Of a stretch of DNA of 64,000 nucleotides, positions 7,376 through 59,222 are shown piece by piece (the first letter of the stretch is position 1; each line of letters opens with the position of its first letter). The stretch lies in contig OZ024742.1 in NCBI GenBank assembly GCA_964016885.1, forward strand, positions 8,184,001 to 8,248,000, given 5' to 3'. The stretch comes from Eledone cirrhosa (lineage: Eukaryota). The position numbers and the translations under genes were made by a program. Below the pieces are notes generated by a model, which saw nothing but the letters and a program-made list of their open reading frames with translations, was not told where the DNA came from and did no database searches.

Positions 7376-7482
7376 GTATTCCGATGATTAGATCAGAGAC
7401 ACACTGTATTTAAGGTCGAGTGACGCAACTTCGAGTGATTAGTGCCCTTTAGACACCTGATCAATGAAACAATTGTTAATAC
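7376..7482 (+). ncRNA. Type I hammerhead ribozyme with long stem II, core mutated (CCGAUGA)
   Basis: Stem I GTATT/AATAC; CCGATGA; stem II GATCAG...CTGATC; GAAA; palindromic stem III ACAATTGT; GUU site. Confidence 0.7.
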
Positions 7483-7799
7483 CTGAAATAAAGCCCTTGT
7501 TGTACAGCCGACCATGTTATTCTTCAATCTTTCACTATATATAAATATATATACACAGTTCTAGAGTAAACCAATCTTAAAGAGAGAGATGGAGATAGGA
7601 GAGGAGAAGAGAGATTGGTGAAGGTGTTAGAAGCCAAAAGCGTAAAGGCATGTGCTCGATGTGCAATATGCAGTGGAAGGCAGCTAGAGGGCTGGGTTCA
7701 TGCAGAGATTAGGTGCACAGAGCTAGAAATATTCATTAGTTAAACAAAACAAGAGCACAAAATTCACAAGGAAGACGTTAGTTAAAGAGTGTCAACATA

Positions 7800-55555: not shown

Positions 55556-56796
55556 TATATATATATATATATATATATATATATGTATATATATATATAT
55601 ATATATATATATATATGTATATGTAAAAATAAATTATCGAGAATCGGAATTACGGCCCGCGAAATAACGAAACACAATCTTCGAAATGCATGGCAAAGGT
55701 TTCAATAGTTTGGGTAAACCAGAGCTATAACTAACGTTTAAATACCAACACATAGAGACAATGCTTAAAATCATTCGCACAGCCGAAAAAACGACCAGGA
55801 AAATTCGGGTCATACAAATAATAAATTAAATGAATGAAAGATCATACCCGGACCTGCTAGAAGGATGTTATATTCTAGCATTTTGGTTTCTGCGGTTCCT
55901 AAATCAGTTACCGTCAGCCTACATAAAAAATATCTGGCTTCTGGCAAAATGATGAACGAGGAAGCAACTTTCTCCACAGGCATTTCGTTCAAAAATACAA
56001 AGGCGCCCGTTACTAAATCCACGTGGGGTCTAGCAAGGGAGCGAACCCCTATATTAGGCGAATGAATTCAGTAGTGTATATATTTGTAAAAATACAAAAT
56101 ATCACATATCGAATTAGAGTTCTCAACAGACGGGTTAAAATTAACATGAGCTATTCATCAGTCAATAAGATCAACTAAAAAATCAATAAAATTAACTGGT
56201 CAATAGCTAAAGACTGGAGATAAATACAAATAAATATTGTATATGTATATATATACATATATATATATATATATATATATATATATATATATATATATAT
56301 ATATATATATATATATATATATATATATATATAGGAACCAGTAAGACCCCGACAGCTGAGCTCAAGCCGTTTCGACGGCTAATTCTGGACTCAGTCCAGA
56401 ATTACCAGAATTACCCGTCGAAACGGCTTGAGCTCAGCTGTCGGGGTCATACTGGTTCCTATTACCCACTCTACTACCTCAAGTATTGAGTACTTTGGTG
56501 CGTTATGGTCCACCTGGTTCCTTACCACATTTCCTTCGTTATATATATATATATATATATATATATATATATATATAAACAAGGTTTAGTAAATAATGAA
56601 AAAGTTTCAAAATAAATTTTAAAAAATTGACTTTACCTACTATAGTTACCTTTACCGATCGGTTTCGAATCCCAAAAATAAAACGGAGACCATACAGCCT
56701 TCGTTGCAAAGAGAGATTCTCGTCAGAAGGTTCTTTTCATTCAAAGAATATAAAATTCCTGAATTTAAATCACAAACTAGCGCTATCCAAAACTGT

Positions 56797-59222
56797 GAAA
56801 TTTCCTCAGTCAAAAGACTGCTCGAATTTCAAATTTGGCGGTCATTCGATACGTGAGGGAGCAGCTTAGCAGACACGATTTTTAACTGCGGTAAGAATTT
56901 TTTATTATATCAAAGTTTAATGGGCTTCCACTGAAGATTTATAAGTGCCCACCTAAATATATTCTTACATGAATATATGTTAGTCTTCTACATAAACTGG
57001 AAACATTCTCCCAATTTGTAGAAAACTTATAATGAAACAATTGTTTGGAAAGAGAGATATGTTTTAACTTTAATTATATCTCATAAAATAATACAACTGG
57101 CTTTCCACAAAATACATATAGTTAGCACCCCAAACACTTAAATTGGGTTATACTAACATATAACCTAATGTTTGTTGAGTGAGATGGTTACCAGTCGGAG
57201 TTTAGCGTTAAGCTTTCTCTGATATTGTATTAAATATGTTACTCTTGATTTGGCCAGAGGTACTTATTTCCATGTACCTTATAAACATGACTTTCCGTAT
57301 TTGTTACTGTTGTGAGATATGGAGGTTTTTTGGTTGTCACTTCTCTGTTTTTAGCCTAAAAAAATATATATATATATATGCGTATGTAAATAATTACATG
57401 CATACATTTATTTTTTTAAATTAATTGAGTTCTTAACACGTGTAATTCATAATAGTTTTAAATAACTAATTAATCCGCGTGTATTAAATATTTTACTCTT
57501 AATTTGGCCAGAGATTTACATTCCCAATCACCTTTAAAGCTTAATCTTCAGTATTTGCTGCGGTGATGTGATGCGGTTTGTTATTTTGGTTTCACCTCTG
57601 TTTTTAGCCTAACAAAATATCTATATGCGTGTGTAATTAATACACGCATACATTCATTTTTTAAATTTCAATTGAGTTCTTAACACGTTTTATTGATAAT
57701 GTTTTTGAAAAAACTAATTAACCCGAGTGTATATTATTTTTTTCTTTTCTCGTATATCGTCGTTGTCTCCCTTTCCCGCTTCGTGACGCTATGAAATTTC
57801 CTCAGTCAAAAGACTGCTCGAATTTCAAATTTGGCGGTCATTCGATACGTGAGGGAGCAGCTTAGCAGACACGATTTTTAACTGCGGTAAGAATGTTTTA
57901 TTATATCAAAGTTTAATGGGCTTCCACTGAAGATTTATAAGTGCCCACCTAAATATATTCTTACATGAATATATGTTAGTCTTCTACATAAACTGGAAAC
58001 ATTCTCCCAATTTGTAGAAAACTTATAATGAAACAATTGTTTGGAAAGAGAGATATATTTTAACTTTAATTATATCTCATAAAATAATACAACTGGCTTT
58101 CCACAAAATACATATAGTTAGCACCCCAAACACTTAAATTGGGTTATACTAACATATAACCTAATGTTTGTTGAGTGAGATGGTTTCCAGTCGGAGTTTA
58201 GCGTTAAGCTATCTCTGTTATTGTATTAAATATGTTACTCTTGATTTGGCCAGAGGTACTTATTTCCAGGTACCTTATAAACATGACTTTCCGTATTTGT
58301 TACTGTTGTGAGATATGGAGGTTTTTTGGTTGTCACTTCTCTGTTTTTAGCCTAAGAAAAAATATATATATGCGTATGTAAATAATTACATGCATACATT
58401 TATTTTTTAAATTAATTGAGTTCTTAACACGTGGAATTGATAATAGTTTTAAATAACTAATTAACCCGCGTGTATTAAATATTTTACTCTTAATTTGGCC
58501 AGAGATTTACATTCCCAATCGCCTTTAAAGCGTAACCTTCAGTATTTGCTGCGGTGATTTGATGCGGTTTGTTATTTTGGTATCACCTCGGTTTTTAGCC
58601 TAACAAAATATCTATATGCGTGTGTAATTAATACACGCATACATTCATTTTTTAAATTTCAATTGAGTTCTTAACACGTTGGATTGATAATGTTTTTGAA
58701 AAAACTAATTAACCCGAGTGTATATTATTTTTTTATTTTCTCGTGTATCGTGGTTGTCTCCCTTTCCCGCTTCGTGACGCTATGAAATTTCCTCAGTCAA
58801 AAGACTGCTGGAATTTCAAATTTGGCGGTCATTCGATACGTGAAGGAGCAGCTTAGCAGACACGATTTTTAACTGCGGTAGGAATTTTTTCTTATATCAA
58901 AGTTTAATGGGCTTCCACTGAACATTTATAAGTGCCCACCTAAATATATTCTTACATGAATATATGTCAGGCTTCTACATAAACTGGAAACATTCTCCCA
59001 ATTTGTAGAAAACTTATAATGAAACAATTGTTTGGAAAGAGAGATATATTTTAACTTTAATTATATCTCATAAAATAATACAACTGGCTTTCCACAAAAT
59101 ACATATAGTTAGCACCCCAAACACTTAAATTGGGTTATACTAACATATAACCTAATGTTTGTTGAGTGAGATGGTAACCAGTCGGAGTTTAGCGTTAAGC
59201 TATCTCTGTTATTGTATTAAAT
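56797..59222 (+). mobile_element. ~996-bp tandem repeat (2.4 units), one long-stem-II HHR per unit
   Basis: Unit starts TGAAATTTCCTCAGTCAAAAG at 56797, 57792 and 58783; no ORF; 3' end in (TA)n; internal ~250-bp duplication. Confidence 0.9.
56926..57050 (+). ncRNA. Type I hammerhead, long stem II (copies 57922-58046; 58913-59037 with mutated core CTGAACA)
   Basis: TTCCA-CTGAAGA-T-TTATAAGT...ACTTATAA-T-GAAA-CAATTG-TT-TGGAA; predicted GUU cleavage after 57045. Confidence 0.88.

Follow-up and report, generated by a model that had tools for sequence, protein, structure and literature searches.

Hammerhead motifs with a greatly enlarged stem II lie, on what is probably the right reading, in the 3' pseudo-LTR (pLTR) of Hydra-clade Penelope-like retrotransposons (PLEs) of Eledone cirrhosa and in one likely non-autonomous derivative; stem II would have grown into a predicted domain of 53-116 nt that is likely to be a cis-acting RNA element, and the core is predicted to cut as a same-family dimer. 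The stretch analysed, referred to as the window, comprises 64,000 nt of assembly GCA_964016885.1 (contig OZ024742.1, 8,184,001-8,248,000, forward strand). A preliminary description of the window had proposed a class of type I hammerheads with a long stem II at eleven sites. All eleven possess the type I order (stem I, CUGANGA, stem II domain, GAAA, stem III, UH, stem I), with the coordinates marking the outer ends of stem I, and a twelfth site that was absent from that description was found at 56648-56731, bearing out the class. The features of the window are:

7376..7482, plus strand: family B long-stem-II hammerhead (descriptor match), class 1 insert of 78 nt, core U4C, in a very short 5'-truncated Hydra tail with an inverted tail copy ahead of it; the family is tied to Hydra ORFs in L118 and L139
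7870..7990, minus strand: family G long-stem-II hammerhead, branched insert of 96 nt, stem I of only 3 bp, lying in a decayed Hydra element's 3' UTR
8448..9691, minus strand: decayed RT/EN remnant of the Hydra clade (tblastn), upstream of the family G hammerhead
22968..23075, plus strand: family A long-stem-II hammerhead, class 1 insert of 81 nt, GUC site, in a truncated Hydra tail
32193..32287, minus strand: family H long-stem-II hammerhead, class 2 insert of 62 nt, stem III ATGATTGT
32868..32984, minus strand: family E long-stem-II hammerhead, 90 nt, predicted cut after 32872, 410 nt downstream of the end of a Hydra ORF
33391..34829, minus strand: young 5'-truncated Hydra-clade PLE ORF with the C-terminal half of RT, a CxCX5C linker and, C-terminally, a GIY-YIG EN; single frameshift near 34050
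34897..35013, plus strand: family E hammerhead, 90 nt, predicted cut after 35009, in an inverted 5'-truncated copy flanking the element
47534..47669, minus strand: family F long-stem-II hammerhead, AT-rich rod of 99 nt, stem I of 9 bp, stem III ACCATCGT
48369..48752, minus strand: Hydra-clade EN remnant; the family F hammerhead follows 709 nt downstream
54270..54396, plus strand: family T2 long-stem-II hammerhead, three-way-junction insert of 95 nt, 13-nt stem III, in a non-coding repeat approximately 70% like the 996-nt unit
56648..56731, minus strand: the additional long-stem-II hammerhead, 53 nt, stem III ACCGATCGGT
56793..59223, plus strand: a non-coding unit of 996 nt in approximately 2.4 copies that are 97% alike
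56926..57050, plus strand: family T hammerhead, three-way-junction insert of 96 nt, possible GGGC/GCCC pseudoknot
57922..58046, plus strand: family T hammerhead of the second unit, 96 nt
58913..59037, plus strand: family T hammerhead of the third unit, 96 nt, core G8C, predicted inactive

The core (CUGANGA/GAAA/UH) is intact at 10 of the 12 sites; it reads CCGAUGA at 7381 (U4C) and CUGAACA at 58918 (G8C), the latter change being reported to abolish hammerhead activity (PMC11167929). Stems I and II differ in sequence yet keep pairing, as had been proposed, with covariation in both stems around the core. The comparison with shuffled sequence, singled out beforehand as one on which the class could fail, gave 12 sites with stem II domains of 53-99 nt in the window versus a mean of 0.01 (maximum 2) in 200 local dinucleotide shuffles, using a descriptor that had been tuned on the same sites.

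Genome-wide, patterns with a stem II of 45-74 nt gave 3,648 matches versus 28 for the reversed-pattern control, those of 75-100 nt gave 5,831 versus 3 (AATT loop only), and those of 101-130 nt gave 11,182 versus 24, with family F predominating among the matches listed in the last range. The total of approximately 20,000 matches, versus 55 in reversed controls, takes in some misparses of the family M type, where the true stem II is short. Family M (7 copies and L149), once parsed with an insert of 60-65 nt, was dropped, its true core lying inside and its stem II being 20 nt, as seen on re-parsing of row C1:5760299 (L069); a 135-nt stem II in L218 was a misparse of a stem of roughly 25 nt. Published hammerhead descriptors, as given in PMC8557442, use a spacer of 7-17 nt and cannot match such sites, in agreement with the earlier proposal that standard descriptors miss the class. 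Rfam called no hammerhead in 15 small cut-outs, from long or short sites, and this miss is not specific to the insert, since the window's short hammerheads were also missed; for the whole window, only sub-threshold miRNA-like matches appeared among the 150 of 394 matches listed. Whole PLE clades are recorded in PMC8557442 as being without hammerheads from descriptors with short stem II limits. Such absence calls, and censuses made with short descriptors, are unsafe, given that intact cores here span structured domains of 50-116 nt in tens of thousands of copies.

The elements with an attached ORF belong to the Hydra clade, with RT followed by a C-terminal GIY-YIG EN, DKT and CxCX5C, where RT and EN were assigned by motifs and homologues, Pfam giving the domains no name. 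RT and EN lie in one frame in L095 (520 aa) and L098 (556 aa), and a near-full ORF is present in the family E element L092, which possesses RWR and DKT; the clade is defined by an RWK motif and by DKT replacing DKG (PMC8557442, section 11). The window element and L095 possess CNCTKPGTC, CKFC/CKLC and CNH, matching the Hydra CxCX5C linker and the CxxC and CxH that flank the conserved E and N, and no CCHH, and (TA)n insertion, a pLTR tandem and an inverted truncated copy are all present, as in Hydra-clade PLEs. A Neptune identity was rejected on the CxCX5C linker, DKT and the missing CCHH. The hosts had initially been called Naiad-like, and this name has to be given up: Naiad PLEs share the PLE organisation, (TA)n targeting and the inverted truncated 5' copy, but have an N-terminal GIY-YIG EN, a CxC domain before RT and DKA, and are described in PMC8557442 as having no canonical hammerhead, whereas here EN follows RT and DKT is present. 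Four GAAA-stem III strings gave no match in the supplement of PMC8557442, including the Naiad consensus files, where line breaks could hide matches.

Hydra ORFs are linked to hammerhead families A (in L036, L121 and L130), B, C1, D, E, F, G and H, the last through a Hydra EN that lies 1.3-1.9 kb upstream in three of 20 loci. L165 was rejected as a link for family H, appearing to be an H tail joined to the ORF of another element. No ORF was found beside families T (0/24), J (0/13), H2 (0/12), C2 (0/7), K (0/2) and N (0/2). The full-length copy L092 possesses a hammerhead at 1751, an ATG at 2071, the ORF end at 4350, a second hammerhead at 4769 and (TA)n from approximately 5040, and in general terms the EN stop precedes the hammerheads by 400-1,900 nt, while the copies' 3' ends follow them after 65-165 nt. 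The architecture had also been placed in non-coding repeats; this holds for the 996-nt repeat, whereas most sites so described are 5'-truncated tails of Hydra-clade elements. Proteins of families A, B, C1 and D are approximately 57-63% identical, and a tree of 36 sequences, one too short and several fragmentary, places A, B, C, D, E, F and G in one clade (0.98), apart from a lineage with 26-38 nt stems and from metagenomic short-stem elements. This clade also takes in a 20-nt-stem fragment of uncertain linkage and two elements in which no hammerhead was found, and the tree is rough, given these outsiders and two F fragments that are not joined.

Partial tandems of the 996-nt unit that end in (TA)n are scattered over the genome, and no ORF was linked to the unit in 24 + 20 loci; a Hydra ORF beside one T copy (L367/L370) is a separate insertion past the (TA)n tract. 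Family T resembles non-LTR retrozymes (PMC7229834, Cervera and de la Pena 2020; bioRxiv 10.64898/2026.07.22.740005) in being a non-coding tandem repeat whose units each hold one type I hammerhead; its 2-bp stem III with a tetraloop and its U.U at the foot of stem II recur in HHR_Amex2. The repeat alone looks non-autonomous and is likely retrozyme-like. Reported retrozyme units are 51-972 bp, whereas those of family T are approximately 730 or 990-1,010 nt, at the top of the range, with a branched stem II of 96 nt.

Stem II domains across the genome families are 53-116 nt long, with internal helices or a three-way junction, and folding of the inserts, in which a common structure had been sought, revealed at least five architectures instead. 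Predicted folding gave z below -2 for the stem II domains of 9 of 11 window copies, with -1.4 at 54274, 7381 not being counted and 57927 not being folded. In a class 1 alignment of 40 sequences, 87.6% of cells are paired versus 28-38% in slid controls, and two-sided changes occur in 14 of 25 pairs; the inner pairs are 52-79 (CG 23, UA 15), 60-71 (GC 17, AU 15) and 49-82 (GC 19, AU 14). These counts are of sequences rather than events and reflect few events, because class 1 consists of about four related families. Default RNAalifold returns only 6 pairs from this alignment, one cause being the one-base bulge that family A carries in stem II. Between families A, B, C1 and D, identity is 0.53-0.69 in the insert and 0.67-0.80 in the tail, and 0.46-0.50, the level of shuffled sequence, in the UTR 220-300 nt upstream; the class 1 insert thus exhibits compensatory changes and is kept while the upstream UTR decays to background. 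Identity of the A-D inserts to that of family E is 0.43-0.52, near the shuffle level, and no alignment with class 1 is obtained for the inserts of E, F, G, T and class 2; therefore, no single protein-binding fold is evident.

Stem II domains in outside relatives are 10-29 nt in 43 of 79 loci. The expansion is lineage-specific, given that published Hydra hammerheads and the 43 metagenomic relatives have domains of 10-29 nt. Every relative examined has a second arm several times shorter, and the predicted fold of the long arm is kept between families, suggesting that this arm likely has a job in the life cycle of the element. A young family with near-intact full-length copies, together with sister lineages with 26-38 nt stems, constitutes a natural series for testing control of cleavage by peripheral RNA and the element protein.

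Under the favoured explanation, tandem copies would be transcribed by read-through, and two neighbouring hammerheads of the same family would pair through the palindromic stem III plus stem I, stem III being only 2 bp when a window hammerhead is taken as a monomer. The RNA would be cut after GUH, which in L092 would release a 3,018-nt unit with the whole ORF, and the RT-EN protein of the element would bind a module of insert plus tail, adjoining the required start of reverse transcription, and would also help the ribozyme to fold. Weak stem III and proposed dimer action in PLE hammerheads (PMC4209133) support this explanation, and for an Anolis PLE protein-assisted cleavage and a reverse transcription start downstream of the hammerhead are reported (PMC11167929). 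Recruitment of RT by the insert, as first suggested, would be plausible. Several observations count against it: cleavage was dispensable for insertion of the Anolis PLE in vitro (PMC11167929); 6 of the 12 window sites have a GUU cleavage triplet, and G occupies the cut site in 24 of 45 matches of a young Hydra lineage in the genome; most window sites have a mismatch at 10.1-11.1, which also occurs in published Hydra motifs (PMC8557442); the inner helix of the class 2 insert exhibits a two-sided change in only 1 of 13 pairs; and for each of the nine long sites tested the predicted minimum is 1.5-6.3 kcal/mol lower than the hammerhead fold, the difference being 6.8 kcal/mol for a short tandem-repeat control. 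A bolder and much more tentative version is that one Hydra radiation repeatedly made stem II into a family-specific RT-EN-binding domain, acting as a protein-switched ribozyme and as a mark for RNAs to be reverse transcribed, including those of the non-coding 996-nt parasite. If true, this would be a naturally occurring protein-gated hammerhead joined to a packaging signal of a retrotransposon, in approximately 20,000 copies unseen by current annotation.

The insert could instead, though this is unlikely, be a peripheral ribozyme domain. Its first internal loop or junction lies 7-9 bp from the core and would dock on either stem I or its flank, replacing the loop I-loop II contact and permitting efficient protein-free cleavage. 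A bulge or junction is indeed present approximately 7-9 bp from the core in every architecture, and in family T a GGGC that lies immediately 5' of stem I has a potential partner in the junction's GCCC, with 17-20 of the 20 sequences able to form each pair; this resembles the pseudoknots of PMC3088659. This pairing, however, exhibits two-sided changes in 0 of 5 pairs and competes with stem II when the fold is nested; a mutual-information scan of class 1 for pairing of the 5' flank with the insert brought out no long-range covarying pair; and the distal 40-70 nt are left unexplained. A further alternative, and a quite improbable one, is tolerated growth, in which distal stem II points away from the core and AT-rich hairpins expanded independently, kept only for folding out of the way. 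The several unrelated architectures, the length gradient of 11, 20, 26, 38 and 53-116 nt in one genome, the AT-rich inverted repeats that form the E, F and G inserts and the internal duplication in F2 are in keeping with this, and exchange of 3' modules between families could mimic conservation of the insert. Class 1, however, keeps GUA/UAGAC and tandem A.G pairs, which are unpaired or non-canonical, across families whose upstream UTR is at background, and a G-AG-U / AG-C internal loop recurs in class 2.

The preliminary description had drawn much of its interest from stem III, holding that one palindrome, with variants, is shared and would allow different families to activate each other as heterodimers. 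The palindrome ACAATTGT is present at 8 of the 11 sites, as described; the variants needed correction, stem III being ATGATTGT at 32193, where the family mode is ACGATTGT (16/19), and ACCATCGT at 47534, and the sole exact ACGATCGT in the window lies at 48771 in a truncated copy without the CUGANGA half. The palindrome is not special, as short-stem hammerheads with ACAATTGT give 8,538 matches versus 24 in the same genome and a palindromic stem III is the published norm (PMC4209133 and related PLE hammerhead literature). Stem III strands are fully complementary in 16 of 36 window family pairs, and the sister families D/C2, H/H2, J/H and F/F2 cross-pair over 4-7 bp in stem I, both in favour of heterodimers. 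The palindrome duplex, however, is predicted to be weak (about -6.4 kcal/mol) and serves short hammerheads too. Stem I of a double hammerhead is intermolecular, its 3' side coming from the cleaved strand. Such a dimer is drawn in Fig. 1 of PMC4209133, according to its legend. Cross stem I between unrelated families is 0-3 bp, and none of the 16 palindrome-compatible pairs reaches 4 bp in either direction in a test repeated with the window's own sequences, modal stem strands being unreliable for small families. Since a dimeric hammerhead also needs an intermolecular stem I, cross-family activation is not supported and is very improbable, and the idea does not hold.

Among the closest known hammerheads are those of PLEs. 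Metazoan PLE minimal hammerheads (Cervera and de la Pena 2014, PMC4209133) likewise lie in pLTRs, with a weak palindromic helix III, proposed dimer action and many truncated dispersed copies, but their helix II, termed 'larger than usual', is of 7-8 bp with a simple loop, and no inserted domain is known for it. Hydra-clade PLEs carry canonical hammerheads (Craig et al. 2021, PMC8557442, File S2) that likewise have the type I topology, a 3' pLTR position and a short stem III, often with U.U where stem II begins, and with U/A/C as the cut-site base and (TA)n as target; their loop 2 is 3-10 nt, whereas the stem II domain here is 53-116 nt. The File S2 table goes no higher than 35 nt, a loop from a spike-moss PLE that is flagged there as deviating (PMC8557442).

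All 11 coordinates listed in the preliminary description (7376, 7870, 22968, 32193, 32868, 34897, 47534, 54270, 56926, 57922 and 58913) coincide with ends of type I hammerhead motifs, whose stem II domains measure 62-99 nt, and a twelfth long-stem-II hammerhead, which had not been listed, lies at 56648-56731 (-) with a domain of 53 nt. A descriptor tuned on these same sites recovered 12 matches in the window versus a mean of 0.01 in 200 local shuffles. The cut triplets of the 12 sites are GUU (6), GUA (4) and GUC (2), core changes are present at two sites (U4C at 7381 and G8C at 58918), and (TA)n repeats are abundant in the window. 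Across the 3.0 Gb genome, a core-gap-GAAA-stem III pattern gave 3,648 matches for gaps of 45-74 nt (control 28), 5,831 for 75-100 nt (control 3) and 11,182 for 101-130 nt (control 24); these matches represent copies of a dozen or so families rather than independent events, and some of them are misparses.

Hammerheads of Hydra-clade Penelope-like elements (PLEs) have loops of 3-10 nt in File S2 of PMC8557442, an Octopus bimaculoides example included, and the longest loop in that file, from a spike-moss PLE, is 35 nt, whereas the long-stem families of Eledone possess stem II domains of 53-116 nt. Searches of the openly readable literature yielded no account of PLE hammerheads with stem II domains as long as 50-116 nt. 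Among 79 metagenomic Hydra-like loci, 43 yielded a hammerhead 3' of the ORF, whose domain measures 10-29 nt (one is a misparse), and 36 did not, many of them because they are without 3' sequence. Another Hydra lineage of the same genome, with intact ORFs, has stem II domains of 26 and 38 nt and sits apart from the long-stem families on a rough tree. In the lineage of loci L285-L329 (intact 714-aa ORFs), the hammerhead has a 26-nt stem II, and 24 of 45 matches show G at the cut position, giving a triplet that is normally uncleaved; older copies, including those at 35239 (-) and 25495 (-) in the window, carry A. A hammerhead core was not found within ~1.2-1.8 kb downstream of the intact ~780-aa ORFs of a further Hydra family (L315-L323); it could be more distant or missing altogether.

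In the protein encoded by the family E element at 33391-34829 (-), the C-terminal half of a reverse transcriptase (RT) is followed by CNCTKPGTC, a GIY-YIG-type endonuclease (EN) region, CKFC and CNH. RT and EN share a single frame in copies L095 and L098, and the near full-length copy L092 has the motifs RWR and DKT, with a single in-frame stop. An RT-then-EN order with such motifs (CxCX5C-type linker, DKT) defines the Hydra clade in section 11 of PMC8557442, and the same paper, where it describes Naiads, places their EN at the N-terminus. With EN after RT and Hydra-clade motifs present, the Naiad identity proposed earlier was rejected. Pfam returned no named domain for the RT and EN regions; 46 homologues align across both, and a named homologue is from Argonauta. 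Family E is young, with hammerhead-region copies that are identical or 99% identical (1,118 candidates). Upstream of the hammerheads at 7870 and 47534 there are Hydra remnants as well. Another PLE ORF of the genome, L110:8316-9998, has a C-terminal EN and is non-Hydra. The window also contains an open non-LTR retrotransposon ORF of 1,129 aa with endonuclease, RT and zf-RVT at 13661-17050 (+), and a broken relative of it at 60124-61964 (+).

Upstream same-strand Hydra ORFs were detected in fetched loci of families A (3 valid of 19, with three further rows set aside as artefacts or another PLE), B (2/10), C1 (1/8), D (2/5), E (10/18), F (2/5), G (3/5) and H (3/20, loci found with H upstream sequence). 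Most of the supposed non-coding repeats are therefore 5'-truncated tails of Hydra elements. The non-coding label held for family T, a 996-nt unit scattered as partial tandems: a linked ORF was present in 0/24 fetched loci, and the ORF seen in 1 of 20 further T loci belongs to a separate neighbouring element. Family T fits a non-autonomous, retrozyme-like derivative. No linked ORF was found in the fetched loci of families J, H2, C2, K and N.

The insert, or enlarged stem II domain, lacks a common structure, as clustering of 175 motifs extracted from loci gave several architectures.

Insert architectures of the hammerhead families
Class 1 insert: families A, B, C and D; 75-83 nt rod with internal loops
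Class 2 insert: families H, H2, J and K; 53-63 nt
Family T insert: three-way junction
Further architectures: families E, F, G and N

The class 1 alignment comprised 40 of 52 sequences, three more having been removed earlier as misparsed or deleted. Under its 25-pair structure, 87.6% of cells are paired and 14 pairs have two-sided changes, figures that are raised by the kinship of the sequences and come from few families. Cells and score were matched in 0/500 shuffles and pair count in 18/500, and pairing falls to 28-38% when the structure is slid along the alignment. Between families, the insert and tail are more alike than the upstream UTR, whose identity is no higher than in shuffles, and this provides independent support for conservation of the class 1 insert. 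The claim that stems I and II vary while keeping their pairing was borne out in 26 of the roughly 46 class 2 sequences, where covariation was observed in 4/5 pairs of stem I and 6/7 of stem II, and in just 1/13 of the inner helix. The 20 family T sequences show 94% pairing with low variation, and a possible pseudoknot has zero two-sided changes among them. The family E insert aligns with those of A-D no better than background.

These motifs are rather probably PLE hammerheads, active now or until recently, that cleave as dimers within a family and carry an expanded stem II within a conserved 3' RNA module for the element's protein. Two hammerheads of one family would cut as a dimer, and the expanded stem II would be part of the 3' module that the protein uses, presumably by binding it. 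In L092, a predicted cut at 1859 is followed by an ATG at 2071, the ORF end at 4350, a second predicted cut at 4877 and (TA)n at ~5040; cleavage at both sites would free a 3,018-nt RNA that holds the entire ORF. Copies terminate ~65-80 or 140-230 nt past the predicted cut site, so templates must reach beyond it, probably as uncut or circular RNA. Uncut RNA was the main template of an Anolis element (PMC11167929). The hammerhead fold is predicted to lie 1.5-6.3 kcal/mol above the minimum-energy fold.

That the insert is instead a docking domain of the ribozyme is unlikely, and that it is tolerated growth of stem II is a quite doubtful proposition. Activation by heterodimers between families, previously suggested from a shared stem III palindrome, is highly improbable. 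The palindrome itself stands, with ACAATTGT forming stem III in 8 of the 11 listed sites, but it is not special to the long-stem class, as 8,538 short-stem matches in the same genome carry it (control 24). In a double hammerhead, U16.1, the cut site and the stem I 3' strand come from the partner. Own stem I measures 3-9 bp in the window's sequences; stem III is compatible in 16 of 36 window family pairs, where cross stem I reaches 0-3 bp, and cross-pairing is limited to sister families. These predicted pairings lend no support to the heterodimer model. A weak palindromic stem III is the published norm (PMC4209133, PMC3088659).

AATAAA or ATTAAA occurs 7-15 nt after stem I in most families (A-E, H, J and K) and many metagenomic relatives, and is absent after the hammerhead in T, F, G and N; it may serve as a poly(A) signal or take part in a tertiary contact. 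Half hammerheads at 43880 (an H2-family copy) and 48768 (an F-family inverted copy) keep GAAA-stem III and have lost the CUGANGA side. Other short or mid-length hammerhead-like motifs belong to different repeat families (22552, 27385, 31614 and 55050 (+); 31352 and 22819 (-)), and those at 31352 and 31614 flank a long inverted repeat. A tandem and inverted array of 422-nt units, near 100% identical, occupies 37639-42173 and 45363-46978. Each unit contains a short hammerhead with a 14-nt stem II and stem III ACTAGT, which an Rfam search did not detect, and the array is retrozyme-like or a short PLE-derived array.
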